Positions 426-55,393 of a stretch of 64,000 nucleotides of DNA are shown here, piece after piece. The position numbers and the translations under genes are program-made. The number at the start of each line of letters is the position of its first letter. Position 1 is the first letter of the stretch. The notes under the pieces were generated by a model that had not been told where the DNA came from, ran no database searches, and saw only the letters and a list, made by a program, of their open reading frames with translations. Source of the DNA: Armatimonadota bacterium (GTDB lineage Bacteria; Armatimonadota; UBA5829); the NCBI GenBank assembly GCA_026392045.1, contig JAPLCU010000012.1, positions 41,142 through 105,141 of the forward strand, read 5' to 3'.

Positions 426-531
426 TGTAACACCTGTGCCGGACCATCGGGCCATCATACTATCCGACTATCGGCCAAATTATGGCCTTTTGACCTTAAG
501 ACTTTTACTAGTAACTAGGAGGAATTTTCTT

Positions 532-2355
532 GTGAGCAATACAGTGACTAAGCTGAGTAAAGAAGAAGCGCTGCGGGAGACCGCGAAACGTTACTTAGCC
601 GACAAAATATATCTGAGCGTGCTGGGCAAAAGCCAGTCTCTCAAAATCAGGCAGGTGCTCAAGGGCATCGATGTTGAGGGTATAACGCTGCGCCTGTTAC
701 GCAATGTTATGGCTAACAACAGCCGTTTCGAAACGGTCGACCACCGCTGGGCGGCATCCGTGAGGTTCGGCGACACTCAGCGCCCGTTTGAGAGGGTTCT
801 TCAGGACATATTCATCTCGGCAGGTATACCCCTTACCGTCACACAGCTCGCAGCAGAGCTTGCCCAGGTCTACAGCCGCACGGTCGCTTATTACGGTGGA
901 ACTCTGCCGAAGATCCTGAAAAACAAAGAGAAATTCTTCGCGGTTGACGGCGCCTACGGCCTCGCGAGCTGGCTTATAATTCCAGCCGATGAAGAAGACA
1001 TCATCTTCGATAGCTTTATCTCCAATGATCAGGTCGCCGAGTTCTCGGAAATCTGCCCGGAGGTCGAGTGGACAGTCGACACCATCGCCGATGCAGCCGC
1101 TGCCGTGGTAACAGCCTGCAAAGAACCGATTCCTCTCAAAATCCTGGCGCTGTTTGCATGGCGCGCACTCGGCGAAGACTTTGACGCGGTCGATTTCTAC
1201 GCAAAGGTCATTGCCGATGAGCGCATTATGGTCCTTTCAGACCAAAAAGTTTACCCGGCGAGCGCAGCTAAAGGCTTCGCCAAAACCATAGCCAAGCTTG
1301 CCGACGAGCTCTCCAAGCTTCCTATGGAAGCCGAAGAGGAAGAAGCAGACGGCCCGGTCACGGTCACCGACACGGATAAAGAAGAGATCATAAAGATGAT
1401 CATCGAAAAGGGCAGCGCGTCCGCCGAAGAGCTTTTAGATTCCATTCTGGAAGTTTCGCAGGAAGACCCGGCTTTCGCTGGCACACTCGAAAGCCTCAAG
1501 ACAGCTCTAGCCGAAGAGGAACGCATAATGTGGCTTGGCGGAACCCGCTGGGGCAAGGTCGAGGTATTCCCGGAAGAAGTGACCGAAATCCCGGCATCGT
1601 TGATTGTGCCCGCCGTACAGCCGTTCGAGACTCCAGAGGGCGATGTTTTCGACCAAATGCTTGAGGAAGACGGCTTCGAAGGCAACCTCAAGAGCGCGGT
1701 CTACGATCCGCTCGCTGAGGATATCACAGACGAAGACCCCGCGCGCACCAAATATCAGCCAAACGGCGATAGCCAGCGCTGCGTACTCAAATATCATCAC
1801 AAACAAGAGGGCACGTTCCCGCTTTGCCAGATCAACCCGAATTTCTTCGGCGCGGAGCCTGAAATCATCCCGATCGTGCTGATCGACGAAGGCAAGCGCA
1901 AAACCTGTTACGTAAACAATACTACACGGCTGATCTACGGCCTCAAAGATCTATGCAAAGACATCACTGAGGTCTCGGGCGCTGTGTTTTACATTGAAAA
2001 GACCGCGAAATCAGGGGAATATCGCTTCAAGTTCGACGGTGAGGTCGACAGCCAGCTGGGCATTGATCTCAACCGCTCACTGGAGCTCATGGAAGAGAAG
2101 CACAGGTTCGAGAGCTCCGACATGCCGATCTATGACGTGATCACCGACATCCTCGGCAAGCAAGGTATGACCTTCGCGCAGCTCACAAACGAGGTCAACA
2201 TTGTAAAACGCTGCTCACGGCTCTTGGTCGCATCGATTCTGATCTCATATCACGCTTTCCACACCCGCGGCAAGTCTGATCAATGGCTCTTCGATGAGAA
2301 AAAGAAATCGCAGGGTTTCAATAAGACCAAGAGGAAGTATATCAAGAAGGACTAG
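532..2355 (+). CDS. Hypothetical 607-aa protein with four or five tandem HARE-HTH-like modules separated by acidic linkers and a Lys-rich C-terminal tail
   Basis: GTG start at 532 lies 9 nt after AGGAGG (517-522). A possible TTGACC-N17-TAACTA promoter sits at 494-522. Recurrent F/IxxLSDxxWGLxSW-like signatures occur (SRFETVDHRWAAS, KFFAVDGAYGLASWL, ERIMVLSDQKVYPAS, ERIMWLGGTRWGKVEVF), resembling the C-terminal hallmark of HARE-HTH domains such as the N-terminus of the RNA polymerase delta subunit. An acidic stretch EAEEEEADGPVTVTDTDKEE is present. The ORF track's upstream ATG at 436 has no RBS. Confidence 0.5.
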   Translation: MSNTVTKLSKEEALRETAKRYLADKIYLSVLGKSQSLKIRQVLKGIDVEGITLRLLRNVMANNSRFETVDHRWAASVRFGDTQRPFERVLQDIFISAGIPLTVTQLAAELAQVYSRTVAYYGGTLPKILKNKEKFFAVDGAYGLASWLIIPADEEDIIFDSFISNDQVAEFSEICPEVEWTVDTIADAAAAVVTACKEPIPLKILALFAWRALGEDFDAVDFYAKVIADERIMVLSDQKVYPASAAKGFAKTIAKLADELSKLPMEAEEEEADGPVTVTDTDKEEIIKMIIEKGSASAEELLDSILEVSQEDPAFAGTLESLKTALAEEERIMWLGGTRWGKVEVFPEEVTEIPASLIVPAVQPFETPEGDVFDQMLEEDGFEGNLKSAVYDPLAEDITDEDPARTKYQPNGDSQRCVLKYHHKQEGTFPLCQINPNFFGAEPEIIPIVLIDEGKRKTCYVNNTTRLIYGLKDLCKDITEVSGAVFYIEKTAKSGEYRFKFDGEVDSQLGIDLNRSLELMEEKHRFESSDMPIYDVITDILGKQGMTFAQLTNEVNIVKRCSRLLVASILISYHAFHTRGKSDQWLFDEKKKSQGFNKTKRKYIKKD

Positions 2356-2446: not shown

Positions 2447-2474
2447 GTTCGGGCGGATTTGCAATCCAGCCCGC
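2447..2474 (-). repeat. REP-like palindromic element, family A (GTTC + CGGGCTGGATTGCAAATCCAGCCCG), inverted orientation
   Basis: GTTCGGGCGGATTTGCAATCCAGCCCGC. Other copies at 6478-6505, 39963-39990 and 42601-42627. Confidence 0.8.
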
Positions 2475-2563
2475 ATTGGCCATCTGGGATCTGCGATCCC
2501 TGTGTATTTCGCATTTTCGCTATTTTTCGCGTTTTCGCGATAATTTGAACCAAAGGAAATGAC

Positions 2564-4030
2564 TTGAGTAAACCAAGAGTAAGATTCGCGCCGAGCCCCA
2601 CCGGCTCCCCGCACATAGGCAACATTCGCACCGCCGTATTCGATTATCTTTATGCGCGCCACACAGGCGGCGCTTTCATATTGCGCATTGAGGACACCGA
2701 CCGCGCCAGATTCGTTGAAGGCAGCCTTGAAGAATTGATGGAAGGGCTGCGTTGGGTTGGGATGCAATGGGACGAGGGCCCCGAGGTTGGCGGCGAATAT
2801 GGCCCATATTGGCAGAGTGAGCGGTTGGAGAATTACTCCAAATACGCGCAGCAGCTTATAGACAGCGGCAGGGCTTATTACTGCTACTGCACCAAGGAGC
2901 GGCTCGAAGAAATGCGAAAAGGGCAGGAGGCTGCAAAGCTGCCGCCGGGCTACGACCGCCGCTGCCGCGCGCTTACTCCCGAAGAGCGAGAAGCGGCCGC
3001 CGCAGAGAACTCCAACCCGGTTATACGGTTCGCGATGAAACGCGAGGGTCGGACGGAGTTTGACGACGTTATTCGCGGACGGGTTGGCTTCGAAAACTCG
3101 CTGCAGGACGATTTTGTGATGATAAAGGCGGATGGTTTTCCAACCTACCATTTCGCTGCGGTCGTTGACGACCACCTGATGGAAATTACGCATGTGGTAC
3201 GCGGCGATGAGTGGATTTCGAGCGCGCCTAAGCACGTGCAGCTCTACGAGGCTTTGGGCTGGGAGGCGCCGGTTTGGGTGCATCCGCCACTAATTCTCGA
3301 CACCACCGGCAAAAAGCTCTCCAAGCGCAGCGAGACCCAGACGACGTTCACCTACTACCGCGAGGCTGGGTATTTGCCGGATGCCATGCTCAATTTCCTG
3401 GCGACGATGGGCTGGAGTTCGGGCGAAGACAGAAAGCTTTTCAGCCGCGCCGAACTGATTGAGAAGTTCAGCTTCGAGGGTATTGTAAATCATCCGGCGA
3501 TTTTCGACCTGGCCAAGCTCAACGATCTTAATGGCGAGTATATTCGCATGATGAGCGTGGATGAGCTGGCTGAGATGATTTTGCCGTGGGTGCAGAAGGC
3601 TGGATATTTGGGCGAAAACCCGACCGCCAAAGATCTGGCTTATATCAAGGAGGTTACCGCGCTTATTCAGGATAGAATGGTGACCCTCGGGGAAGCTCCC
3701 GATTTGGTTTCATATTTCTATAACTGCGGTTTTGATTATGATGAAAAAGGAATAAAAAAGCATTTAGCGAAGGATACTACGCCTGCTTTGTTGAAGGCAA
3801 TTATAAGTAAGCTTTCAGATGTTTCTGATTGGAATACGGAGCGCATAGAGGCAGCGGTGCGCGAAGCCGGAGCAAGCGTAAGCATGGAAGGCGGGCATGT
3901 GATTCATCCGGTGCGAATGTCTATAACAGGCCGCACATGGGGGCCAGGCCTTTTCGAGCTTATGAAAATAATCGGAAAAGAGCGCTGCCTGACCAGGCTC
4001 CAAAAAGCCATAGATAAGTTTGGAGTGTAG
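2564..4030 (+). CDS. gltX: Glutamyl-tRNA synthetase
   Basis: Class I aaRS with HIGN (PHIGNIRTA) and KLSKR (KMSKS-type) motifs. TTG start. Confidence 0.9.
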   Translation: MSKPRVRFAPSPTGSPHIGNIRTAVFDYLYARHTGGAFILRIEDTDRARFVEGSLEELMEGLRWVGMQWDEGPEVGGEYGPYWQSERLENYSKYAQQLIDSGRAYYCYCTKERLEEMRKGQEAAKLPPGYDRRCRALTPEEREAAAAENSNPVIRFAMKREGRTEFDDVIRGRVGFENSLQDDFVMIKADGFPTYHFAAVVDDHLMEITHVVRGDEWISSAPKHVQLYEALGWEAPVWVHPPLILDTTGKKLSKRSETQTTFTYYREAGYLPDAMLNFLATMGWSSGEDRKLFSRAELIEKFSFEGIVNHPAIFDLAKLNDLNGEYIRMMSVDELAEMILPWVQKAGYLGENPTAKDLAYIKEVTALIQDRMVTLGEAPDLVSYFYNCGFDYDEKGIKKHLAKDTTPALLKAIISKLSDVSDWNTERIEAAVREAGASVSMEGGHVIHPVRMSITGRTWGPGLFELMKIIGKERCLTRLQKAIDKFGV

Positions 4031-4594: not shown

Positions 4595-4646
4595 GCATTC
4601 CCTGACACGAGGTGTTTCGGGATTTGAGCGAAGCGGAAATCCCGAA
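4595..4646 (+). repeat. Family C composite intergenic repeat (cattcc-type flank + TTTCGGGATTTGAGCGMAGCGGAAATCCCGAAA)
   Basis: The core is an imperfect palindrome. Copies at 10655-10740 (inverted), 24678-24728 (a variant with an insertion) and 26217-26279. Confidence 0.75.
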
Positions 4647-4660
4647 ATATTTGGAGATGT

Positions 4661-5230
4661 ATGGCTGATTACCGTGATGAGAAAAAACTGGTTGCAGGGC
4701 TGAGGGCGGGGGAGCGGGAGGCGTATGAGCGGCTTCTGGACCTCTACCAGGATAAGGTCTACGGCATGGCTCGCAGAATGGTTGGCGGGCTGGATGCCGA
4801 GGACGCGGCGCAGGATGCGCTGGTGGAAATCTGCAACTCGGTAAAGGGCTTCAAAGGCAGGTCCAGCCTCGCTACCTGGGTATACAGGGTGGCGATGAAT
4901 GTCTGCCTGGAGCGCCGCCGCATGCGCCGTCTGGAGACCGTGCCAATCGAGGAAAATACGCTTGATAGGCAAGAAAATTCAAGCTCTGAGCCGGGAGCGG
5001 TTGCGGTGAGAAACGAAACGAAAACCACGGTAAATAACGCCATAGATTCTCTGCCGGATATTCACCGGGATGTGGTAATTTTGCATGAATTGCATGGGCT
5101 TACCTACAGCGAATGCGCTGAAGCGCTCAGTTGCCCGGTGGGAACGGTAAAAAGCAGGCTCTCGAACGCCTTTCGAGCGCTGCGAGAGCAACTTCGGGAA
5201 TACGCATCAGAAGGCGGGTTAGAACTATGA
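4661..5230 (+). CDS. ECF (sigma-70 family, group 4) RNA polymerase sigma factor
   Basis: 189 aa with sigma-70 regions 2 and 4 (DAAQDALVEI..., C-terminal HTH GLTYSECAEALSCPVGTVKSRL). Confidence 0.85.
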   Translation: MADYRDEKKLVAGLRAGEREAYERLLDLYQDKVYGMARRMVGGLDAEDAAQDALVEICNSVKGFKGRSSLATWVYRVAMNVCLERRRMRRLETVPIEENTLDRQENSSSEPGAVAVRNETKTTVNNAIDSLPDIHRDVVILHELHGLTYSECAEALSCPVGTVKSRLSNAFRALREQLREYASEGGLEL

Positions 5231-6468
5231 ATTGCCGGATGGTGAAAAGCGAGATTAAAGCATATATTGACGGCGAGCTTGGGCGGGTAATGCGCTGGCG
5301 CGTCAGCCGACACCTTGCAAGCTGCGTCGAGTGCCAAATGGAGGCTAAATCTATGACGGACCTTACAAATGAAGTTAATAATATAAGTGATATCACTGCC
5401 CCCAGCGGGCTGCGGGAGAAAGTGCTCGGAAAACTTAATTTTGAGCCTGTGGTCAGAGCAGGTTGGAAGTGGCCGTATAAAACCAGGCCGATTGCTGTGG
5501 CGGGGTTGCTGGCGATTGCTATAGTGGCGGCTGCGGTAGTGATACCGATGTTTGGACCTGCGAAGGTGCAAAGCAGGAAGATTGCGAGTGCGGGCAAAAT
5601 GCAAGCAAAAACAGAGCAAACAGCCGCTACTAGGCCAGAGGAATCACTGAAGTTCGACACACCTGCCGACACCATTTCCGCCAAAGTTGATAACTTCATA
5701 TATAACAAAGCACCTGACCATGCACCCATGATCGCCGTAGGAAAGACGGTGCCTGCGCGAAACGCGGCTAAATTTAGCGACGGTCACATAAACCCGCAGC
5801 TCATGATAATCAAAAACGCCGAAATGACTGTGCTGGTTAAGGATTTCTCTAAAGCCAATGATGCGGCGGTTTTTGTGGCTAAGTCTCTTGGCGGGTTTGT
5901 GACTGATTCTTCGGTGAGCTCTGATGAGGGCGCGCCTGTTTCGGGTTCGATGTGCCTGCAAGTTCCTGTGGATTCTTTTGAAAACGCAATTGAAAAGCTC
6001 GGAAAGCTTGGCAAAGTGACAGTTAAAAACCTGACGGGCGAGGATGTGACCGGCCAGGTGGTGGATATTGATTCTCGGCTTCGCAATAAACGCGCCGAAG
6101 AGCGGCAGTATTTGGAAGTTATGAACAAAGCCAGGCGCATCGGGGATATTATGAATGTCTCAAACGAGCTTTACCGCGTGCGCGGCGAGATAGAAGAAAT
6201 GGCTGGTCAGATAAAGCAGTTGAAGAGCTCCGCCGCCATGAGCACAATAAATCTGACCCTGACCGAGAAACCTAAGCCTAAAGCCGCACCGATGGGCTTC
6301 ATTCAAAAGAGTTTTACGGGCGCTGTGGCTTCGCTGGTGGGCTCTTTAAGCAAGATCGCAGGTATCATTATCTGGCTGGTAGTATATTCGCCATTCTGGG
6401 GCCTGCCGGTTTTCGGTTATCTATACTGGAGAAGACGAACGCCGATTGCGGGGACAAATGAAGCATAG
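5227..6468 (+). CDS. Anti-sigma factor with N-terminal zf-HC2 motif, one TM helix and a C-terminal DUF4349-like coiled-coil domain
   Basis: ATG at 5227 overlaps the sigma-factor stop (ATGA). An Hx3Cx2C motif (HLASCVECQ) is present. A hydrophobic helix (IAVAGLLAIAIVAAAVVI) follows. The C-terminal region matches the DUF4349 pattern. Confidence 0.7.
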   Translation: MNCRMVKSEIKAYIDGELGRVMRWRVSRHLASCVECQMEAKSMTDLTNEVNNISDITAPSGLREKVLGKLNFEPVVRAGWKWPYKTRPIAVAGLLAIAIVAAAVVIPMFGPAKVQSRKIASAGKMQAKTEQTAATRPEESLKFDTPADTISAKVDNFIYNKAPDHAPMIAVGKTVPARNAAKFSDGHINPQLMIIKNAEMTVLVKDFSKANDAAVFVAKSLGGFVTDSSVSSDEGAPVSGSMCLQVPVDSFENAIEKLGKLGKVTVKNLTGEDVTGQVVDIDSRLRNKRAEERQYLEVMNKARRIGDIMNVSNELYRVRGEIEEMAGQIKQLKSSAAMSTINLTLTEKPKPKAAPMGFIQKSFTGAVASLVGSLSKIAGIIIWLVVYSPFWGLPVFGYLYWRRRTPIAGTNEA

Positions 6469-6477
6469 ATGCTTTTG

Positions 6478-6505
6478 CGGGCTGGATTGCAAATCCAGCC
6501 CGAAC
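6478..6505 (+). repeat. REP-like palindromic element, family A
   Basis: CGGGCTGGATTGCAAATCCAGCCCGAAC, a perfect 26-bp palindrome plus GAAC tail. Intergenic. Confidence 0.8.
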
Positions 6506-6558
6506 AGATAGAACGATTTAGCTTGAAGGCTTATCATGCTGCTCATCCTTCGAGACCC

Positions 6559-6632
6559 TCAGGATGGCGAATTGCAAGCTCAGGATGGCGAATTGGTAGC
6601 TCAGGATGGCGATGTGCGAGCTCAGCATTGCT
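6559..6632. repeat. Tandem repeat, 21-bp unit x 3.5 (CTCAGGATGGCGAATTGCAAG)
   Basis: Units at 6559-6579, 6580-6600, 6601-6621 and a partial unit to 6632, in the convergent intergenic region between the anti-sigma and CaCA genes. Confidence 0.8.
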
Positions 6633-6641
6633 CCTGTTAAG

Positions 6642-7667
6642 CTAATGTGCGACCTTCACAGAATAGCCGAGCATTGGCATGAGCCAGAAAACTGCTATTG
6701 GGTAGAGGGCGTATAGCGCGCCGCCGATTAGCAGCGAATATGGGCTGAGGCGTTTGCGCAGGGTCATCTCGCCCCAGATTATTGAGGTTGCAAGAATAGC
6801 TATGACGATTGCTGTTACCGCCTGCGCGTTAAGCGCCCAGGGAGTGAAAAGCATGCCTATGGCAGGAAGAATGCTGCTTTGAAAAACCATTGCGCCAGTG
6901 ATGTTGCCGAGGGCCAGAGTATCTTTGCGATGCCTGGTCCAGGTGATTGAATTGAACTTTTCGGGCAGCTCGGTGGCTATCGGGGTGATGATAATGCTCA
7001 AAACCAACGGCGAAATTCCGAGAGTCCCTGCAGCTATGGTGATGCTGTCCACAAACTCCTTCGCTCCGATAAGCATAAGCGCCAGACCTGCGACCAATTG
7101 CACGACGACAATTCGCAGGTGCGGAGTGGCCACCCTCCTGTGAAAATGCAGAGGCCGCAGGCTCTGCTCATCAGTTGTGCTTTCAGATGCCATGGTCTTC
7201 TTTACATAGAGTATGTAGATTACAATGAGAATAGCCGCAATTGCGAATTTGGCTGCGGGAATACTGTGGAACGCCGATCCCACCAATGCGAGCAAATAAA
7301 CAAGAAAGAATGTTCGAAGATCACATCCGACGACCTTATAATCTGCGTGAATTATGGGCTTTCGAATCTTCATAGCGCTGAATATGAGGATGGAAGCGCC
7401 CGTGATAAACATTGCAAGGGTGCTGAGCATCATTGGCGCGCCCAGAATAGCGCCGATACCTGCTTCAGTGTTCGCGGTTCCACCCATAACTACCGCAACA
7501 ATAGCAACCGTTGTTTCCGGGAGCGCAGTGCCAACCGCCGCGAGCACACTGCCAACTGCGCCCTCGCTCAGCTTCAGGTGTTTTCCAAACCATTCTACTG
7601 CGTTTGTGAAAAGCTCCGCAGCCAGAAATATCAGTAACAGGCCGCCAAGGAGAGTGAGCCAGGTCAT
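6642..7667 (-). CDS. Ca2+/Na+ (cation) antiporter, CaCA family (YrbG-like)
   Basis: Polytopic membrane protein with duplicated alpha-repeat motifs (GTALPE ... GNITGAMVFQSSILPAIG). Confidence 0.8.
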   Translation of the reverse strand: MTWLTLLGGLLLIFLAAELFTNAVEWFGKHLKLSEGAVGSVLAAVGTALPETTVAIVAVVMGGTANTEAGIGAILGAPMMLSTLAMFITGASILIFSAMKIRKPIIHADYKVVGCDLRTFFLVYLLALVGSAFHSIPAAKFAIAAILIVIYILYVKKTMASESTTDEQSLRPLHFHRRVATPHLRIVVVQLVAGLALMLIGAKEFVDSITIAAGTLGISPLVLSIIITPIATELPEKFNSITWTRHRKDTLALGNITGAMVFQSSILPAIGMLFTPWALNAQAVTAIVIAILATSIIWGEMTLRKRLSPYSLLIGGALYALYPIAVFWLMPMLGYSVKVAH

Positions 7668-9548: not shown

Positions 9549-9576
9549 GTGCCGCATCAGAGATTGTGCCCGAACA
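9549..9576 (+). repeat. Family B REP-like element (degenerate copy)
   Basis: GTGCCGCATCAGAGATTGTGCCCGAACA. It shares the TCAGAGATTG loop and the CCCGAACA tail. Confidence 0.55.
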
Positions 9577-9596
9577 GGACCGTCGGCCAATTATTT

Positions 9597-10637: not shown

Positions 10638-10654
10638 TGATTTCTCCTTTGTGG

Positions 10655-10740
10655 TTTCGGGATTTCCGCTGCGCTCAAATCCCGAAAAACCGAACCTTTG
10701 GATTCCCGCCTTAGCAGGAATGACAAATTTCGCTGACAGA
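10655..10740 (-). repeat. Family C composite repeat in the rtcB / Gfo-family intergenic region
   Basis: TTTCGGGATTTCCGCTGCGCTCAAATCCCGAAAAA plus flank ...GGAATGACAAA. Confidence 0.75.
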
Positions 10741-13924: not shown

Positions 13925-14241
13925 GGTCTATATATTATATATATAAATTGTGGTAGTGGTAATAGGAGGTGTGGATACTGTGGAAAACAGCCTCTATTAC
14001 GCTTACCCTAAGCTCATCTGCTCATGTGGACAAAACAGGGTGAACCATAAGCCCAACTGCTAAGCTGCTGTAAAAACTATGTGGATACTAACAACCGCGC
14101 AATCCACATTACTATCAACAGATTTGTCCACAGGTTCTTACCGGAAGGTTTCCACAAGTTTTACATGGCCTTTCATGGGCAATAATGTCTGAAATTCAAA
14201 GGTTGTGGAAGGGCGCACTCAAGTGACAGATAGCATATTCT
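13925..14241. promoter_or_regulatory. oriC: Putative chromosomal replication origin (oriC): AT-rich DUE plus a cluster of DnaA-box-like 9-mers
   Basis: AT-rich tract TATATATTATATATATAAATT at 13928-13950. At least seven TTATCCACA-like boxes on both strands: TGTGGATAC 13969-13977 and 14080-14088, TGTGGAAAA 13979-13987, TGTGGACAA 14026-14034, ATCCACA 14103-14109, TTGTCCACA 14123-14131, TTTCCACA 14150-14157, TGTGGAAGG 14205-14213. Confidence 0.7.
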
Positions 14242-14244
14242 TAC

Positions 14245-14309
14245 GGGCGGATCAGAGATTCCGCCCGAACATAGAATGGGGACGCCCGCATCAGAGATTG
14301 CGGGCGAAC
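14245..14309 (+). repeat. Two tandem REP-like hairpins of family B (stem-TCAGAGAT-stem + GAAC tail) immediately downstream of dnaA
   Basis: CGGGCGGATCAGAGATTCCGCCCGAACA and CGCCCGCATCAGAGATTGCGGGCGAAC. The stems differ but remain complementary. Confidence 0.75.
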
Positions 14310-14341
14310 TTCGAATGGTGTTGGCCCGAACATGGTGTTGA

Positions 14342-15901: not shown

Positions 15902-15971
15902 GGGAGGGCGAGGCTCCCGCCGAGCTTCTTAACTGCGAAGGGAAACGGCTCAGGGGGACCTTCGCCCTCCC
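15902..15971 (+). repeat. 70-nt GC-rich structured element (family D), copy 1
   Basis: GGGAGGGCGAGGCTCCCGCCGAGCTTCTTAACTGCGAAGGGAAACGGCTCAGGGGGACCTTCGCCCTCCCC. Its 12-bp terminal arms are complementary. About 93% identical to 51856-51925. Confidence 0.7.
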
Positions 15972-17032: not shown

Positions 17033-17104
17033 CTTCGGTGATCGAGATTTTTATCACGATGTGCGGTAGGCTTCGGCATCAGGATACCGAAGCAACTAAC
17101 TGTT

Positions 17105-17128
17105 GGGCCGCAATCTCTGATGCGGCCC
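17105..17128 (-). repeat. Family B REP-like hairpin, inverted orientation
   Basis: GGGCCGCAATCTCTGATGCGGCCC, that is GGCCGCA-TCAGAGAT-TGCGGCC on the other strand. Confidence 0.7.
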
Positions 17129-24677: not shown

Positions 24678-24728
24678 TGTTTCGGTGATTTGAGTGGAGC
24701 GTCAGCGGAACGGAAATCCCGAAACAGA
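24678..24728 (+). repeat. Family C repeat, divergent copy
   Basis: TGTTTCGGTGATTTGAGTGGAGCGTCAGCGGAACGGAAATCCCGAAACA between the deoR-family gene and argH. Confidence 0.6.
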
Positions 24729-24800
24729 ACAAGCGAAACTTGACACTCCCCGCTCCTCCCCCTAACATGATGAAGAATCAACACATCAGGAGCGAACACC

Positions 24801-26216: not shown

Positions 26217-26279
26217 GTCATTCCGCGACAACCTGTCATTGGTCTTTCGGGATATCCGCTGCGCTCAAATTCCGAAAAA
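26217..26279 (-). repeat. Family C composite repeat
   Basis: GTCATTCCGCGACAACCTGTCATTGGTC + TTTCGGGATATCCGCTGCGCTCAAATTCCGAAAAA. Confidence 0.75.
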
Positions 26280-26512
26280 CCAAAGCTTACCTGGTATAAT
26301 TACCAGGTTTTTGGCAACCAGATGCTCAGATCCCCCAGTTTCCAAAAATATTTCAAAAATACCTATTGACAAACAAGTATTCATGGGTTACACTGCAATC
26401 AGGCTAAGATGTTTCACTGCAGTTGTGACTCGCTACTTGGACGCTGCTGTTTCTCACAGACCAAATGCGGTGCAAACTTCTACAGACCACAACAAGAAAG
26501 GGGAAAACTAAT

Positions 26513-27178: not shown

Positions 27179-27215
27179 AAAGCCCCGGGTGAATATCCGG
27201 GGCTTTGTTGTTTGG
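27179..27215 (+). terminator. Rho-independent terminator after the PEP-CTERM gene
   Basis: Hairpin AAAGCCCCGG-GTGAATAT-CCGGGGCTTT followed by GTTGTTTGGTTTTT. Confidence 0.75.
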
Positions 27216-27340
27216 TTTTTCGAGATTTGAGGGTGGAGCACAATTTATAAAGCTATAATCCAAGCATTCAACCCAACCCGCCAATCCCGAAAACACGGAC
27301 GTTGATATTCAGATTGAACATTCGCAGGTTTCTCATGAGA

Positions 27341-30845: not shown

Positions 30846-30896
30846 CTTAATGAGAATACACGCTTAATGAGAATACACGCTTAATGAGAATACACG
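30846..30896. repeat. Perfect tandem repeat, 17-bp unit x 3 (CTTAATGAGAATACACG)
   Basis: Three identical units in the GH51 / phosphohexomutase intergenic region. Confidence 0.85.
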
Positions 30897-30905
30897 CACA
30901 AACTA

Positions 30906-30989
30906 GCATCCTGAGCTCCGTCGAAGGGTGCGGTCAAGTCCAAACATGCGTATCTTCGCAGCCGCATACTTCGACGGAGCTCAGCATGC
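30906..30989. repeat. Family E: 28-bp motif GCATCCTGAGCTCCGTCGAAGGGTGCGG and its inverted copy, forming a long hairpin immediately downstream of the GH51 gene
   Basis: Arms at 30906-30933 and 30962-30989 with 25 of 28 positions complementary. A third copy at 34615-34642. Confidence 0.7.
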
Positions 30990-33392
30990 TTACATTGTAA
31001 TCAGCAAGTCTGAGCTCTTAATTGTTACTGAGTTTGCGGGGAAGTCATACTTGAACTGGGTTCCCTTGACGTTTATTGTGCTAGTCTTTGGTTTGATCTT
31101 CTCCGTTTGCTCAATTGAGTTTTCATCCATGCCGTTTGCGGAGGTCAGGACGATTACTTCGGCCTTGGAACCGAGGTTCTTTGCGCCTGCCAGAGTCACA
31201 TCGGTGGCTTGAGGAGACCATCCGGCGTTTACCACTTTTACGATAATATCGCCGGTTTTTTCATCACGGCTTGCCGTTGAATGAAGAGGGCTTATTGACG
31301 GGAAAGCCTCTTCCTGGACCAGCTTGCCATCCAGATAGCAGCGGATTTTATCTTTACCAAGATCCACTTTGACATCATACCACTTGCCCGTCTCAACATT
31401 GCCGCGAATACGCCTGCCAATTGGGGAACGATTCCACTCTATTGCGTTCTGGGTATTCCTCCAGCCGCCCACATTCCACCATGCGCAGATGTTCTTGTCC
31501 TGGGCATAGAATACAAGCAGGAATCCTTCTTCACCTTTGATCTTTCGGGCTTTGCAGGAGAATGTGTATTCTTTCCAATTGGTATCGCCGAAAGTCGCGC
31601 GGGCGTTTTCTATCAGGGCGGTCTGCCTGAATGCGCCATCCACCACTTTCCAGTCGCCATTGATTGTCTGCCAGTCTTTGGCTTCTTTGGAGAAATCGCC
31701 TTTGTAAAGAATTTCATCACCCTTGGTTACTAATACATCTTTGAACTCAGCTTCGGTTACCCACGTGCTCAGACCGATAGCGCCGTGAGTTGGCTCGGAA
31801 AGGGTGGTTGTGCGTTCGATAGTTACCGGCAGCACAACATCGCCCTTGTTTTGGCTGAACATCTGCTGCACATAGTAAGACGGGATGCCGTAGACCCGCG
31901 AGCTGTCGAAGTCTATAAGGTTCGGGTTCCATGCCCTGTGATTGATATTCACGAATAGCGGAGCATAGGAGCACATTGTGACGATATCCGAGTTTCTCTC
32001 CATTCCACACATAAACGCCGCTTCGCCGACTGCGCCCCTGAGGCTGCCCTGGCCCGTGCCCTGGGTGACGGCATATTCGCCGACATAGATTTTCGGGCCT
32101 TTGCGGTCATAGGTGTCGTATTTATTGGCGTTGTTGATGAAGAACTCCGGGTTGGAATAGTAATGCTCGTCGATGATCTCAGGTGAGTTCTTGTCTGGAA
32201 CGCCGCCCCAAACATTGGCGATCAGATGCATGTCTGGATACTTGGCCTTGATGGCTTTGACAAACAGCGGCCATCTTTCGTTATATGCGCCGCCGCCGTT
32301 TTCGTTGCCGATTTCCATATACTTGAGGCCGAACGGCTTCGGATGACCGGCTTTTGCGCGCACGGCTCCCCACTTGCTGTCTGCCGGGCCGTTTGCGTAT
32401 TCGATGGCATCAAGCGCGTCCTGCACAAACTCGTCCATTTTGTCCATCGCAATGACTCCGCCGTGAGACATGCCGCAGTTGATAACAAACAGCGGCTCGC
32501 TGCCGAGGTCTTCACAGAGCTGCAGGTATTCATGGAAACCGAGGCCGTTTGTGGCTTCATAGCCCCAGATATTGTGCTGGGTGCGTCTATCTTCAACGGG
32601 GCCTATGGTGGTTTTCCACCGCTGGGCCTCTGCCATGGTGTTTCCTTCGACCCAGCATCCACCGGGGAAGCGCACAAATGCGGGCTTCAGGCCAACGAGC
32701 ATTTCGGCCAGGTCCGGGCGAAGACCGTGGTTCTTCCAGGTCTTTGCGGGCATTAGGGAGACACAGTCCAAGCCTAAACTGCCGCTCTCGGTGGTGGTTA
32801 TAACCAACCGCGCTTTTGGATCGGTGGCTTTGGAGACAAGGCGAGATGTAAACTTCTTCCACTCGGATGTCAAGCCGCTGATCTTGGCAGAAGCATAAAC
32901 ATCACCTTTGGCGCTTTCCAGGCTCGCAGTTAAGCTGCCCTTGATACTCTTGGCGTAGGCATACAAGGAGAGATTGTAGGTTTCACCCTTTTTGATACCC
33001 ATTCCCCACCAGCCGTCATTCGCGACACCCACCCGGCCGCCTCCCTTGTTGGAGATCTCAAGGCGAAGCGATTTCTGGTTGAACTCGCTTTTGGTCGCCG
33101 GGTTTGATGTATCGACGACGCTCGCAGTCTCGGCAGGACCTTCGTTTACCAAAGTCCAGTAATCGAGTTTGTCCGAATCTTCAAAAGAACGATTGCGCAC
33201 GAGTTCCGGGTAGATGCCGCCGTCGCCCGAACAGTTGATCTCTTCATAGAAGATTCCGTAAAGTGTAGGGCTGATCTTGTGGCTGGGTTTGTCCACCTGC
33301 ACAGTCAGTTTTGCCGGTTCTGCCCCAAACGCTGCCGAGACAATGGATAGGGTCACTGCGGCGAGTGCCATTAATTTCAGAAATCTGGTCAT
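30990..33392 (-). CDS. Multidomain secreted alpha-L-arabinofuranosidase, GH51 catalytic domain with N-terminal CBM-like and C-terminal beta-sandwich domains
   Basis: Signal peptide. GH51 core (FVRFPGGCWVEGNTMAEAQRWK...EIGNENGG... with catalytic Glu motifs). Confidence 0.7.
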   Translation of the reverse strand: MTRFLKLMALAAVTLSIVSAAFGAEPAKLTVQVDKPSHKISPTLYGIFYEEINCSGDGGIYPELVRNRSFEDSDKLDYWTLVNEGPAETASVVDTSNPATKSEFNQKSLRLEISNKGGGRVGVANDGWWGMGIKKGETYNLSLYAYAKSIKGSLTASLESAKGDVYASAKISGLTSEWKKFTSRLVSKATDPKARLVITTTESGSLGLDCVSLMPAKTWKNHGLRPDLAEMLVGLKPAFVRFPGGCWVEGNTMAEAQRWKTTIGPVEDRRTQHNIWGYEATNGLGFHEYLQLCEDLGSEPLFVINCGMSHGGVIAMDKMDEFVQDALDAIEYANGPADSKWGAVRAKAGHPKPFGLKYMEIGNENGGGAYNERWPLFVKAIKAKYPDMHLIANVWGGVPDKNSPEIIDEHYYSNPEFFINNANKYDTYDRKGPKIYVGEYAVTQGTGQGSLRGAVGEAAFMCGMERNSDIVTMCSYAPLFVNINHRAWNPNLIDFDSSRVYGIPSYYVQQMFSQNKGDVVLPVTIERTTTLSEPTHGAIGLSTWVTEAEFKDVLVTKGDEILYKGDFSKEAKDWQTINGDWKVVDGAFRQTALIENARATFGDTNWKEYTFSCKARKIKGEEGFLLVFYAQDKNICAWWNVGGWRNTQNAIEWNRSPIGRRIRGNVETGKWYDVKVDLGKDKIRCYLDGKLVQEEAFPSISPLHSTASRDEKTGDIIVKVVNAGWSPQATDVTLAGAKNLGSKAEVIVLTSANGMDENSIEQTEKIKPKTSTINVKGTQFKYDFPANSVTIKSSDLLITM

Positions 33393-34586: not shown

Positions 34587-34604
34587 TTATTCCTCCAAGA
34601 CGAT

Positions 34605-35522
34605 TTATATTTGGCCGCACCCTTCGACGGAGCTCAGGATGCTAGAAATCTTAGGCATTGCTCCTTTTTGGGAGCAGACGTAGGCTGCCAGCCGATTTGC
34701 TGTGTCGTTGATTTTGTCTAAATCGGTTCCGTTGAGCATTCCCATTACAATTGCGGCAGTGAATGAATCACCTGCGCCGACTGTGTCCACGATCTTCGCC
34801 GGGTAGCCCCGGTGCTCGCTTGTTTGATTTGGCGTGCATAGAATGCTGCCGCGGCTTCCCCGCGTGAGAGCTATTAGTTTCAGCGAATATCTTTCCACCA
34901 ATTCATTCAGCGCTTCATTAGTATCCATGCTTAGCCCGAGCATTTTGCATAGAATGGGCAGCTCTTCATCATTGAGCTTCATGACGTTTGAGCGCGTCAG
35001 TGATTCGACAATCACATCTAAGCTGTAATACGACTGGCGCATGTTGATATCGAAGACTCGCAGAGAGGTCTCCGGCATGCAGGTTAGAAACTTCTGCACG
35101 GTTTCACGTGATATCGCCGACCTCTGGCACAGCGAACCGAAGCAAACTGCGTCTGCGTGCGCAGCCACTTCTTCCAATTCATTCGACCACGGAATGCAAT
35201 CCCATGCTACATCAGTGTGAATGACATAGCTGGGGACGCCGTTTGCGTCGAGCGTTACGGATACTGTGCCGGTCGGGTGGTTTTTGTCCACTGCCAAATA
35301 TGTGCGATCCAAGCCTGCATTATCCAGCAAACTGAGGATTTCATCGCCCAATGGGTCAGCGCCCACGCAGCTTACCACGCACGATTGTGCTCCCAGAGCC
35401 TGCGCATGATACGCGAAATTGGCGGGCGCGCCGCCGAGCTCTTTACCGCCTGGCAACAGGTCCCAGAGTATCTCGCCCAGCCCGATTACGTTGTATTGGT
35501 TTTCTGACAATTGGTTCTCCAC
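34605..35522 (-). CDS. PfkB-family carbohydrate kinase (fructokinase / ketohexokinase-like)
   Basis: N-terminal GG motif (LGGAPANFAY) and C-terminal DTVGAGDSF anion-hole motif. Confidence 0.8.
   Translation of the reverse strand: MENQLSENQYNVIGLGEILWDLLPGGKELGGAPANFAYHAQALGAQSCVVSCVGADPLGDEILSLLDNAGLDRTYLAVDKNHPTGTVSVTLDANGVPSYVIHTDVAWDCIPWSNELEEVAAHADAVCFGSLCQRSAISRETVQKFLTCMPETSLRVFDINMRQSYYSLDVIVESLTRSNVMKLNDEELPILCKMLGLSMDTNEALNELVERYSLKLIALTRGSRGSILCTPNQTSEHRGYPAKIVDTVGAGDSFTAAIVMGMLNGTDLDKINDTANRLAAYVCSQKGAMPKISSILSSVEGCGQI
34615..34642 (-). repeat. Family E 28-bp motif, single copy overlapping the last codons of the PfkB kinase gene
   Basis: CCGCACCCTTCGACGGAGCTCAGGATGC, the exact reverse complement of 30906-30933. 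Confidence 0.7.
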
Positions 35523-39422: not shown

Positions 39423-39947
39423 TTACGCCGCTTTTTTGCTGTCCTCAACCTTAATTTTGGAAAGCAAGTCGTTTTCTTTGGCGCTGAGCACTTTTTCAAC
39501 GTCCAGGAGAATCACCAGGCGGCCATCCTGCTTGCCGACACCTCTCACGTAGGCTGAATCAACGTTCACTACAATCGGTGACGGAGGCTCTATTGCATCC
39601 TGCGGGAGCTTTAGCGTTTCGCAGACGGCGTCGACCATCATTCCTATCATCTGATCGGCAGCTTCCACGACAACTATGCGGGAAGCTTTAGTTATTTCGC
39701 CAACGGGCAAACCGAAGCGCTTCCTGAGATCGATGACCGGGATGATGCTGCCGCGCAGGTTGATGACACCCTCCACGAAATTCGGGGTTCGAGGGATGGA
39801 GGTCACTTCCTGCATTCGTATAATCGTGCTGACTGCGCCGATGCTTACGCCGTAGCGTTCGCCGGATATCTCCATCACAACCAACTGCTCGGCGCTGTCA
39901 TCAAGAGCTATTTCTCGGATATCTGTTTCCATTTGCACAATCTCCAT
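39423..39947 (-). CDS. cheW: Chemotaxis coupling protein CheW
   Basis: Single CheW-like domain (...GVINLRGSIIPVIDLRKRFGL...). Confidence 0.85.
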   Translation of the reverse strand: MEIVQMETDIREIALDDSAEQLVVMEISGERYGVSIGAVSTIIRMQEVTSIPRTPNFVEGVINLRGSIIPVIDLRKRFGLPVGEITKASRIVVVEAADQMIGMMVDAVCETLKLPQDAIEPPSPIVVNVDSAYVRGVGKQDGRLVILLDVEKVLSAKENDLLSKIKVEDSKKAA

Positions 39948-39962
39948 TTATCTTCTGAACAG

Positions 39963-39990
39963 CGGGCTGGATTGCAAATCCAGCCCGAAC
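39963..39990 (+). repeat. REP-like palindromic element, family A
   Basis: Identical CGGGCTGGATTGCAAATCCAGCCCGAAC between cheW and the MCP gene. Confidence 0.8.
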
Positions 39991-40121
39991 TTAGGTTTTC
40001 AGCCCAAACATAGGTGGGAACTTTTGTCACCCTGAACTCGATTCAGGGTCTGCGTTTAGATGCTGAATCAAGTTCAGCATGACACGATTCCATGACGTGA
40101 TGCCCACCACTGTTGTTTACT

Positions 40122-42455
40122 TTAAGCAGCTTTCTTGCGCTTGCGAGAGGTGACTTCAGCGGTCACGTCTTGCAGTGAGTTGTCGCTCACCTTGAACTGA
40201 CCGACCAACTCTTGCAGGCTCTGAGCCATAACGGCGAGCTCGCTGCTTGCCGCGCTCATCTCTTCGACAGATGCCGTCTGCTCCTCGGCTGTCGCTGAAA
40301 CTTCCTGAGCGGAAGCGGCGTTCTCCTGGCTGACAGCTGCGACCTGCTCTATCTGGGTCGAAACTTCACTGCTCGATGAGGCCATCTCTTCAGTTGCCGC
40401 GGCGCTTTCTTCAGTGATCGCGGAAACGTTTTCGATTGCCCTGATGACTTCGGTCGATGAACTGGTCATCTGCTCGGCGGCGGAGGAAACATCCTTGACC
40501 TGGCTTACAACGCTTGCGACGGCGTCCTGAATCCTGGTCAAAGCCTGACCCGCCTGGTTGCCCAAATCTGTGCCATCTGAAACTTCCTTGCTTCCAAGTT
40601 CCATTGCCTCTACGGCCTGATCGGTCATCTTTCGGATTCCGCCAATCAGATCTGCGATCTCGCCAGTTGCCTTGGATGATCTTTCGGCAAGTTTTCGCAC
40701 TTCATCGGCGACAACTGCGAATCCCTTGCCGTGTTCGCCTGCTCTTGCGGCCTCGATTGCGGCGTTGAGAGCGAGGAGGTTGGTCTGCTCGGCAATATCA
40801 TCAATTGTTTCGACTATCGCGCCTATCTGCTGTGAGCTCTCGCCCAGCTGCTTGACCATATCGGCGACCTTGTCGGTAGCTACTTTGATGCGATCCATGC
40901 TGCTCACGGCTTCGCTGACCTGCTGTCCGCCGGCGGTAGCAACTTCGCTCACCTGCTGGCTTGTCACTGCTGCCTCGTCAGCGCTCTTTGCCACCTGCTC
41001 AATAGCTGAAGCTATCTGCTGGACCAGGCTTACGGTCTCATCGACCATCTTAGCCTGACTCTGAGCGCCCTGGGCAACTTCTTGAATCGCCCTGCCTAGC
41101 TGATCAATACCCATTGCGCTGGACTGGACGACTCGGCTCTGCTCGCCTGAACCAGAAGCGACCTGCTCGATGGTCTCGGCGATCTGCTGAGCGCCCTTAC
41201 CGACTTCATCGGCGCTTGCAGATATTGCCTGGGCAGACGCAGCCACGCGGCCCGCTGATTCAGTGACCTCCCGCATTGCCATTTCAAGGTGATCCATAGC
41301 GGTGTTAAGGCTGTCCTTGATCTTTGCCAGATCGCCGTTGTAATCTCCGTTCATTCTCGCGGTGAGATCGTTAGCGGCAAGTCTTTCCAGAACATCGGCT
41401 GCTTCGTTGACAGGGGTTATGACGGCATCGAGCGTGTCATTTACACCTTGAACGATTTCTCTGTAGCCGCCTTCGAATTTCTCTGCATCGCCTCTAGTCT
41501 CAAGCTTGCCCTCAATTGCTGAATTGCTGAGCATACCGACCTCGGAAACTAGATTGCGCAGAGTTTCAACCACGTGGTTCATGCTATTCGCAAGAACATC
41601 TTTGTCTGACTTTGCCTCAATCTCTACGCTCAAGTCTCCGTCGGCGATTTTGTCTGCTGCATTGGCGTTGGCCTTTATGCCTTCGACCATCAAGCCCATA
41701 GATCTTGTAAGCTCGCCGATTTCATCCTTAGCCGAAGAATTGGCAAAAACATCAACATCGCCAAGCGCGAGCTTGTCGGCCAATCCCTTTAGCTGAGTCA
41801 TGGGCTTGGCAACACTTGTGGCGATGAAGAAACCAAATGCCCAAGCAATAATAACGCCGACTATCATGAAGACAATCATTGTTGTATTTGTTGATATATA
41901 ATCCTTGTCAAAATTCTGATCGAATTGCTGGGCGCCTTTCTCATTAATGTCGGCGATCTTCTGAATGAGCGCATCGGCTCTATTATAAGCATCTCGAGCG
42001 GTAGTAAAGGATATCATCCTGGCTTCTTCCAGCTTGCCTGATTCAGCAAAAGAAACAGATTGTTGGCTCAAACCCTTCCAAGTCTCGAAGGCCGGCACAA
42101 ATGCCTTCCACACTTTCGCTTCTTCTTTAGTTTTCGGAAGTGGTTCGTATTCTTTCCAATGTTTCTCCAGGCTAGCCCAGTTCGTTGATAATCGCTTGAT
42201 CTGATTCTGCTTGATCTTTTCGTCAATGTTTGGTATCAGCAGTGTGCGCTCAGCCATTTGAATCAGCCCCATGTTACCTTCTACTACCCTGGTTGCGTTA
42301 AGGCTGGGCAGGTTGGTTGCGGCTATCTGGTCCTCTGCTACCTTCGCAGCGTTCATGCCAGACAAACCTTTGAACCCAATTATTGCGGCAATCGCGGCAA
42401 CAATCATAACTGCGCCGATAAGCCTCGGCTTTAGCTTTATTGAATCTACATGCAT
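40122..42455 (-). CDS. Methyl-accepting chemotaxis protein with a periplasmic sensor region, multiple HAMP units and a C-terminal MCP signalling domain
   Basis: Two TM helices flank a roughly 170-aa periplasmic region. Repeated HAMP-like segments. Highly conserved signalling tip [33 protein letters not shown]. Confidence 0.9.
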
Positions 42456-42600: not shown

Positions 42601-42627
42601 CGGGCTGGATTGCAAATCCGCCCGAAC
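42601..42627 (+). repeat. REP-like palindromic element, family A (one-base deletion in the right arm)
   Basis: CGGGCTGGATTGCAAATCCGCCCGAAC between the MCP and MBL genes. Confidence 0.75.
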
Positions 42628-42645: not shown

Positions 42646-43203
42646 TCAGTGGGGTTTTGATACTATCGGCGGCCCGTGGCCCGGGTAAACCACGCGCACA
42701 TCCAAGCTGGCGATGTAGCCCATAGCGGCGAGAAACTGGTCGGAGTAATTAAGGTCACGAGCGGCCAGGCTGGGGGGGTTGTCTCCCGAAAACAGAACAC
42801 CGTCGGCAGGGCAGTATAAGCAGATGGAATCAGAGCTGTGACCCGGCGCCCAGATCACCCTGAACTCTTTATCTCCACAGCGCAGCATGTCTCCATCGTG
42901 CATCACGCGGTCAACACCCGGAATATTGCGCGAGTATGCACAGACAATCGGCGAATAAAGCTCTTGTATCTTCTCCAGCATACCTGTGTGATCGTAATGG
43001 TCATGAGTGAGTATCACCTGGGCAATGCGCTTCTTGCCTATGCCGGTTGACGCGTCTCCAATTCTTGACATGATATCGGGGTCGCGGCCCACATCCACCA
43101 GTGTGTTGACATCATCTATGGTTTTCCAGTCGCCGGTCACCAGATATGCATTGCCCGTGTAGCAAGTGGTCGTGTTGCGATTTATGAGGTTCAGTATTTT
43201 CAT
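42646..43203 (-). CDS. MBL-fold metallo-hydrolase (glyoxalase II-like)
   Basis: THDHYDHTG (HxHxDH) motif with downstream His and Asp ligands. Confidence 0.75.
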   Translation of the reverse strand: MKILNLINRNTTTCYTGNAYLVTGDWKTIDDVNTLVDVGRDPDIMSRIGDASTGIGKKRIAQVILTHDHYDHTGMLEKIQELYSPIVCAYSRNIPGVDRVMHDGDMLRCGDKEFRVIWAPGHSSDSICLYCPADGVLFSGDNPPSLAARDLNYSDQFLAAMGYIASLDVRVVYPGHGPPIVSKPH

Positions 43204-51855: not shown

Positions 51856-51925
51856 GGGAGGGCGAGGCTCCCGCCGAGCCTTGTAGCTGCGAAGGGAAAT
51901 GGCTCAGGGGGACCTTCGCCCTCCC
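51856..51925 (+). repeat. 70-nt GC-rich structured element (family D), copy 2
   Basis: GGGAGGGCGAGGCTCCCGCCGAGCCTTGTAGCTGCGAAGGGAAATGGCTCAGGGGGACCTTCGCCCTCCC, 110 nt upstream of argC. Confidence 0.7.
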
Positions 51926-55190: not shown

Positions 55191-55393
55191 TGAATATTGA
55201 AGTAAATATTGACGATAAAGGCAAACTTCTCGAAAGGGGAGGACGCAAAGCCATCGGGACTAACGCTCACTTAGGTGAGATAAGTCAGCCGGGCTGCCGT
55301 TTTCCAAGCCTTCGAGGTTTGCCTTTTTTTGCGTCCTGTCGTATTATGTAGAGGCTTCTTCGAAGTGGATGGATAACACGGGAGGACAATACA

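Follow-up and report, generated by a model that had tools for sequence, protein, structure and literature searches.

The four copies of a short intergenic hairpin (family A) found in the window, i.e. the whole 64-kb stretch of DNA analysed here, are considered as REP elements of a non-canonical type, hairpins spread by a REP-associated tyrosine transposase (RAYT), with a probability of about 85%. On the GTTC-first strand, its foot is GTT(C/G), the final base of which is also the first of an 11-bp stem; two 5-bp halves, in many cases with a 1-nt bulge between them, compose this stem, and a 3-nt loop closes it. In the loci of relatives, a single RAYT gene, encoding a HUH/Y1 nuclease, lies between inverted ends that are each built from this hairpin (hairpin 1), a short linker with GGCAA and a smaller hairpin 2.

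Hairpins of the window and their covariation

The window is a chromosomal origin region (dnaA, a DnaA-box cluster, recF, dciA, rtcB and parAB). On the ORF map, family A is present as four intergenic copies spaced 2.6-33 kb apart (Table 1). The copy at 6478-6505 (CGGGCTGGATTGCAAATCCAGCCCGAAC; on the - strand, GTT-CGGGCTGGATT-TGC-AATCCAGCCCG) lies between convergent genes, 10 nt past the stop of a DUF4349/anti-sigma gene (5131-6468, +) and 137 nt past that of a Na/Ca-exchanger gene (6642-7667, -). Its twin at 39963-39990, for which the preceding G matches too, is located between an MCP gene (40122-42455, -) and cheW (39423-39947, -), 16 nt upstream of the cheW start. The copy at 42601-42627 (GTT-CGGGC-GGATT-TGC-AATCC-A-GCCCG), which has the form seen in other Armatimonadota MAGs, is found 19 nt past the stop of an MBL-fold gene (42646-43203, -). 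It is identical to the inverted copy at 2447-2473, between a gene at 436-2355 (+) and gltX (2564-4030, +), and both are one A shorter (…AATCC-GCCCGAAC). Together with the linker and hairpin 2 that follow it, this first copy makes up a whole hairpin 1-linker-hairpin 2 unit (2447-2500), of which positions 2474-2500 are the same as in the unit beside a RAYT gene of locus L019 (CATTGGCAAACC-GGGATCTGCGATCCC) except for 4 linker bases.

Table 1. Positions of the putative REP hairpins and of a third hairpin family in the window
Feature	Position	Strand	Sequence or form	Support
Family A	2447..2473	+	bulged form, hairpin 1 of a complete two-hairpin unit	covariance model
Linker + hairpin 2	2474..2500	+	CATTGGCCATCT + GGGATCTGCGATCCC	match to L019 unit
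Family A	6478..6505	-	perfect-stem form	covariance model, 45.2 bits, E 5.6e-10
Family B, decayed copy	9551..9577	-	GTTCGGGCACAATCTCTGATGCGGC	under covariance-model threshold
Family B	14244..14270	-	GTT-CGGGCGGA-A-TC-TCT-GA-TCCGCCCG	covariance model, 28.9 bits, E 1.8e-5
Family B	14283..14309	-	different, fully compensated stem (CGCCCGCA…TGCGGGCG)	covariance model, 22.1 bits
Further GTTG hairpin	17070..17096	-	head-to-head with 17102..17128	
Family B	17102..17128	+	GTTG foot (GGGCCGCA…TGCGGCCC), between convergent genes	24.1 bits
Family A	39963..39990	-	perfect-stem form, identical to 6478..6505 base for base	covariance model
Family A	42601..42627	-	bulged form	covariance model, 32.8 bits
Third hairpin family	4611..4647			
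Third hairpin family	10653..10695			
Third hairpin family	24678..24730			
Third hairpin family	26245..26288			
Third hairpin family	27211..27231			

The sequence-only reading had described four copies, identical or differing by one base, of a perfect 26-bp palindrome. All four are present and intergenic, as two identical 28-mers and two identical 27-mers without one base, the first of them ending at 2473 and not at 2474. The string given as a palindrome is 25 nt long and gapped, with perfect 11-bp arms around a 3-nt centre (GCA). The 13-mer core GGATTGCAAATCC was observed 4 times in the window for 0.18 expected, and the 25-mer is expected 0.00 times (100 dinucleotide-preserving shuffles). With a length of 27-28 nt, an 11-bp stem and a 3-nt loop, the element is a short stem-loop, as REPs are (imperfect palindromes of about 20-40 nt); folding as single-stranded DNA gave -13.1 kcal/mol (z = -6.5) for the full form and -9.8 kcal/mol (z = -4.4) for the one-base-shorter form, in which an A is bulged.

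The apical part GGA-TTGCAAA-TCC (6484-6496 and the other copies) is shaped like the anticodon arm of tRNA-Cys (GCA), and TTTGCAA on the opposite strand resembles the anticodon loop of tRNA-Ala (UGC). This likeness is probably a coincidence, since no tRNA or Rfam model supports a relation; a tRNA or tRNA-derived element was rejected, as ARAGORN called no gene and Rfam gave no match at the family-A sites. Just downstream of the copy at 6478-6505 is a tandem repeat of 21-nt units (CTCAGGATGGCGAATTGCAAG, ~3.5 copies, 6558-6631). A further hairpin that recurs, GTCA(Y)SCTGAACTYGATTCAGS, is present at 40023-40090 as two copies in tandem inversion, and also just 3' of family-A copies in loci L011 and L012, so that it is found 20-40 nt from a family-A hairpin in three independent loci.

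Family B combines a conserved loop, TCAGAGA(T), and the GCCCGAAC tail with stems that differ and are compensated; the decayed copy at 9551-9577 has retained loop and foot, its stem being broken. That families A and B have this tail in common, as had been noticed from the sequence, is borne out by 10 occurrences of GCCCGAAC for 2.25 expected. A covariance model was built from 26 distinct hairpins and run unfiltered on the window. Exactly 7 sites (4 of family A, 3 of family B) were found at E < 0.002 and nothing more below E = 0.2 except reverse-strand echoes, a result which, the model having been trained on the same hairpins, shows the exclusivity of the set and not an independent discovery. 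All 7 significant sites are intergenic, though ORFs make up 89% of the window (0.109^7, ~2e-7).

In the alignment of the 26 hairpins, GTT is invariant (26/26) and the foot is GTTC or GTTG; 97.4% of the cells pair, a value that is partly circular as most rows were chosen with a hairpin filter, and 10 of the 11 pairs are changed on both sides. The alignment was put in register by hand, with N at bulge positions. None of 500 shuffles reached the values found, and a one-column shift of the partners makes the pairing collapse. What is informative here is the variation of the stems from locus to locus at a fixed foot, register and loop class. On the GTTC-first strand, 6 G-T wobbles and 3 C-A/A-C mismatches were counted; these mismatches become wobbles when the other strand is read, and the alignment does not single out an active strand. 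Family A and B hairpins do not carry the GT[AG]G foot of canonical REPs, which rules out a 'canonical REP' only and leaves the wider REP class unaffected.

The family-B copy at 14244-14270 is downstream of dnaA and adjoins the DnaA-box cluster. The region 13925-14230, between dnaA and recF (no dnaN is present between these two genes), combines an AT-rich stretch with clustered sites that resemble DnaA boxes (TGTGGATAC, TTGTCCACA, ATCCACAT and others), and probably is oriC. Two family-B hairpins and a partial foot (GTTGGCCCGAAC, 14320-14331) lie at the edge of this putative oriC. A c-di-GMP-I-GGC riboswitch aptamer was detected at 55211-55302 (+) (Rfam RF03167, 65.8 bits for a gathering score of 59), ~500 nt upstream of parA/parB.

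Other repeats of the window were recorded as well. A 70-nt repeat (GGGAGGGCGAGGCTCCCGCCGAGC…GACCTTCGCCCTCCC) is found at 15902-15971 and 51856-51925, its two copies being 93% identical, both intergenic, each forming a long hairpin. Three perfect 17-nt units starting with CTTAATGAGAATACACG form a tandem repeat at 30846-30897. A 42-nt inverted repeat, 90% complementary (30903-30944 and 34604-34645), brackets a 3.7-kb segment with a GH51-like arabinofuranosidase gene and an iron-type alcohol dehydrogenase gene, and a local hairpin is present at 30905-30990.

RAYT genes and two-hairpin units in related loci

The sequence-only reading would have been undone by a motif restricted to the window. The 19-mer CGGGCTGGATTGCAAATCC was found in five related MAGs, three of which bear an Armatimonadota or Armatimonadetes label (one of these three being a complete 5.4-Mb chromosome), always in the bulged form followed by GCCCGAAC (in L010, GCCCGAGA). 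A metagenome scan yielded 14 more contigs, and ten Armatimonadota-like metagenome contigs carry the same sequence. The exact 19-mer occurs 1-5 times per related genome, the complete 5.4-Mb chromosome included, and thus is not high-copy there, unlike classical REPs, of which a genome has more than 100 dispersed copies; in the 64 kb of the window, 4 family-A and 3-4 family-B copies were counted. Four further matches, in Clostridia, were rejected as chance, as they lie in coding DNA without the 3' arm and are not picked up by the covariance model.

In many copies, read on the GTTC-first strand, hairpin 1 is followed by a linker with GGCAA and by a second hairpin (core ATCTG(C/T)GAT or ATTTGTAAT). 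L011 (5181-5302) and L013 (4436-4558) contain inverted doublets of this two-hairpin unit, ~120 bp long and without RAYT, wherein GTTC-hairpin 1-GGCAA-hairpin 2 faces its own mirror image. These doublets look like REPINs, or like a RAYT unit that has lost its gene.

A search for an associated RAYT gene, which had been proposed with the motif, was performed by tblastn with four RAYTs and found none in the 64-kb window; the best match (E = 0.017) is inside gltX and was rejected as chance. In related loci, RAYT genes are flanked by the same GTTC-footed hairpin in inverted orientation. Locus L022 has a 180-aa ORF between inverted clusters of GTTCGGGCGGATTTGCAATCCGACCG hairpins, which passes the NCBIfam model NF047646 'REP-associated tyrosine transposase' (97.9 bits for a cut-off of 80) and also matches Pfam Y1_Tnp. 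Homologues of this RAYT were found by tblastn in L019, L018 and L005. The NF047646 scan covered six proteins (those of L022, L019 and L005, P0002 of L018, P0004 of L030 and P0006 of L028), and all six passed with 80.4-103 bits for the cut-off of 80. HUH (THVH/NHLH) and Y..NP motifs are visible in the sequences of the relatives' RAYT proteins, and P0006, which NCBI names as coming from an Armatimonadota MAG, aligns to the E. coli TnpA-REP (PDB 4ER8) with E = 4e-4, the alignment spanning both the HUH and the Tyr motif. With the L019 protein as query, proteins of ~180 aa were retrieved that form one clade, with 60-77% identity.

The L019 RAYT is located between nuoM and nuoN. Its right flank (+ strand), GGGATCGCAGATCCC-GGTTTG-CCAATG-CGGGCTGGATTGCAAATCCGCCCG-AAC, is nearly base for base the unit of the first window copy, and its left flank is the inverted counterpart of the right one, with a compensated stem. 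Inverted hairpins flank the RAYT genes of L022/L025, L018, L019, L028/L029, L030, L032, L033, L034 and L035, with a count of eight independent related loci, two of which have the gene order of the window; the window itself has no such RAYT. The order GTT(C/G)-hairpin 1-GGCAA-hairpin 2, RAYT, hairpin 2'-TTGCC-hairpin 1'-GAAC holds in L028/L029, L030, L032, L033, L034, L035 and L018. A REP is defined by its place at the end of a RAYT unit, and the REP-like reading, with GTTC/GAAC in the role of GTAG, gains support from the relatives. The possibility that the motif belongs to a larger IS terminal repeat, which would have told against this reading, was right about a larger terminal structure and wrong about its nature, this being the end of a RAYT unit and not a conventional IS.

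Within one RAYT clade, two core types were distinguished, ATTTGCAAT for family A and ATCTCTGAT for family B. The RAYTs of L018, L019, L030, L032, L034 and L035 are flanked by family-A cores, those of L028 and L033 by cores of the family-B type (…AGATCAGAGATCT…GCCCGAAC). Since one clade comprises both A- and B-flanked genes, the two families belong to one clade, in agreement with the earlier suggestion that a single recognition system may serve both.

L028 and L033 share the gene order of the window, dnaA-recF-dciA-[RAYT-glycosyltransferase]-rtcB-gfo, and the window proteins are 49-81% identical to their L028 counterparts. Their RAYTs (L028, 10001-10549; L033, 1946-2494) occupy the same place beside the origin genes, a position that looks as expected for a vertically inherited single-copy gene. 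At 12224/12225 of the window, dciA abuts rtcB, and the RAYT and the glycosyltransferase (GT4) gene are absent, with no remnant. None of the window's hairpins is present in the orthologous L028 spacers (dnaA-recF, rtcB-gfo and after gfo), and this presence/absence pattern fits mobility.

The hairpins of a third family in the window (TTTCGGGATTT…AAATCCCGAAA) frequently carry a …CCGAAC tail. Similar hairpins (GTTCGTTTCGGGAACAAGTTCCCGAAAC) flank a second, more distant RAYT, located in L005 (1414-1947, -; NF047646, 87.7 bits), and this third family probably represents the REPs of a different type of RAYT.

Proposed mechanism and rival explanations

By homology with E. coli TnpA-REP and IS200/IS605 TnpA, we infer that the RAYT would bind the folded hairpin on single-stranded DNA, using the foot as a guide, and would cut and rejoin the DNA, so that hairpins or hairpin doublets could spread into intergenic DNA. 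Families A and B would be alternative hairpin cores for one RAYT clade, and hairpins located after stop codons may have a further putative role in the stabilisation of mRNA 3' ends. As no RAYT is present in the 64 kb, the window copies would be served in trans from elsewhere, or be left after RAYT loss.

The latter case has its own version, possible and still clearly less probable than the main reading, in which the copies are REPs by descent, immobile relics whose cognate RAYT has been lost and which, if kept, would owe this to a host use such as mRNA 3'-end protection. It is favoured by the dciA-rtcB junction, from which RAYT and neighbouring glycosyltransferase are missing where L028 and L033 have them, by the lack of RAYT within 64 kb and by the decayed family-B copy (9551). 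However, the copies are pairwise identical over 27-29 nt, which suggests recent copying, conversion or selection, and the window is richer in hairpins per kb (7 in 64 kb, none beside a RAYT) than the relatives, whose 20-kb RAYT loci have only two flanking hairpins; moreover, a RAYT elsewhere in the genome is quite possible, since 64 kb is ~1% of a genome. A stronger claim is rather doubtful, namely that the GTTC guide and two-hairpin end are a distinct mode of RAYT-REP recognition, proper to an Armatimonadota RAYT clade with vertical inheritance at the replication origin (dnaA-recF-dciA-RAYT), and that this gene was lost here while identical hairpins were kept or even multiplied. If it were true, either another RAYT would have to mobilise the hairpins in trans, or the hairpins themselves would be under selection by the host.

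Improbable, in turn, is a host motif unrelated to transposition, i.e. an intrinsic terminator, an mRNA-stabilising stem-loop or a palindromic site for a regulator or nucleoid protein. Strong stems, copies 10-19 nt past stop codons or 16 nt ahead of a start codon, and GTTC standing first on the transcribed strand in 5/5 informative window copies are what such a motif would show. This orientation bias is gone in the relatives, whose single copies are 3 co-oriented and 3 anti-oriented, so that the check on bias relative to flanking genes, which had been suggested with the motif, established none. In eight loci, the inverted ends around RAYT genes consist of this same sequence, no Rfam family matches, and the orthologous spacers of L028 are without hairpins. 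No T-run follows the stems and none of the family A or B hairpins was called by the terminator scan; an intrinsic terminator was rejected on the tails of the GTTC-first strand (CAAAAG, CTGTTC, CATTGG, TTTTGC) and of the other strand (AACAGA…). That the hairpins are pieces of the terminal inverted repeat from a conventional IS or MITE is more improbable still: the composite units of ~60 nt and inverted doublets of ~120 nt seen in related loci would suit it, but the units flank a Y1/HUH RAYT and not a DDE transposase, no target-site duplication or longer shared flank was found at the four window copies, and three of the four are bare hairpins of 27-28 nt. A CRISPR array was also rejected, the window copies being far apart and the clusters of L022/L023 being of mixed orientation with irregular spacing (61-157 nt).

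Comparison with known systems

REP/RAYT systems have been studied mostly in Proteobacteria, with GTAG-type feet, and Armatimonadota is a phylum on which little work exists. As in the E. coli REP/BIME system with TnpA-REP (RayT; PDB 4ER8; PMC3479197), the enzyme is of the HUH/Y1 type, its gene lies between inverted REPs, and the REP is an extragenic stem-loop, often bulged in its stem, with a conserved tetranucleotide at the 5' foot. The hairpins described here differ from those of E. coli in that this tetranucleotide is GTTC (or GTTG) and not GTAG and that its last base pairs in the stem, and the window has no alternating arrays in the style of BIMEs; the similarity of P0006 to 4ER8 is marginal (E = 4e-4). 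The REPIN-RAYT system of Pseudomonas (Bertels and Rainey 2011, PMC3116915; PMC5581495) is alike in that the RAYT looks single-copy and vertically inherited and in the RAYT-less inverted doublets of L011 and L013. A Pseudomonas REPIN is made of two copies of one REP, whereas here the two hairpins of the unit differ, and the window holds single hairpins and one half-unit, with no doublets.

The IS200/IS605 family (IS608) shares the single-stranded-DNA hairpin with a guide tetranucleotide at its foot and the HUH/Y1 core (Pfam Y1_Tnp), but here the ends are inverted and not direct and the gene is not multi-copy; with the IS200 NCBIfam model, the RAYT proteins of the relatives score 16-30 bits for a cut-off of 55. 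A survey of palindromic repeats recognised GTAG and CGTC tags (Di Nocera et al. 2013, PMC3733652) on short stem-loops dispersed between genes, to which the present elements are similar except that their tag differs from both. The foot of canonical REPs is GT[AG]G (PMC6006769); GTTC is described as a foot in neither PMC6006769 nor PMC3733652, and GTTC/GAAC occurs nowhere in the text of the latter. Among the papers searched, none joins Armatimonadetes with REPs.

Subclass 2.6 of TnpA-Y1 (Bertels RAYT group 5) is mostly found in Bacteroidetes, with a median length of 179 aa (Quentin et al. 2018, PMC6006769). Its members carry WQ, YIH[QN]NP and SS motifs and are associated with 'atypical secondary structures', and the hairpins of subclasses 2.6 and 3 are also without GT[AG]G (PMC6006769). 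The Armatimonadota RAYTs, with ~180 aa, WQ, Y..NNP, a C-terminal SS and hairpins without GT[AG]G, would be assigned to this subclass on motifs and length only; likewise, the Bacteroidota-like locus L022 has GTTCGGGCGGATTTGCAATCCGACCG arrays around its RAYT. They differ by their occurrence in Armatimonadota, by a HUH motif that is THVH and not NH[LIV]H, and by the GTTC foot and the hairpin 1-GGCAA-hairpin 2 unit, which are not reported in PMC6006769. The subclass-2.6 flanks of its supplementary file 2 include GGATTGCAAATCC and GGGATTACAAATCC hairpins, and its table gives …CGGATTGCAAATCCG… for Flavobacterium johnsoniae and …GGGATTACAAATCCC… for Runella, with the same apical cores as here. As GGATTGCAAATCC is already listed for Bacteroidetes RAYTs of subclass 2.6, this kind of element was known before, and the present reading explains several puzzling repeat families in Armatimonadota genomes without calling for a new kind of system. 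GTTC-footed, RAYT-associated hairpins are first seen here in Armatimonadota, a case which brings together a GTTC guide, a two-hairpin end, natural stem covariation and two cores for one enzyme clade, and is a convenient test case for the reading of guide and hairpin by a RAYT.
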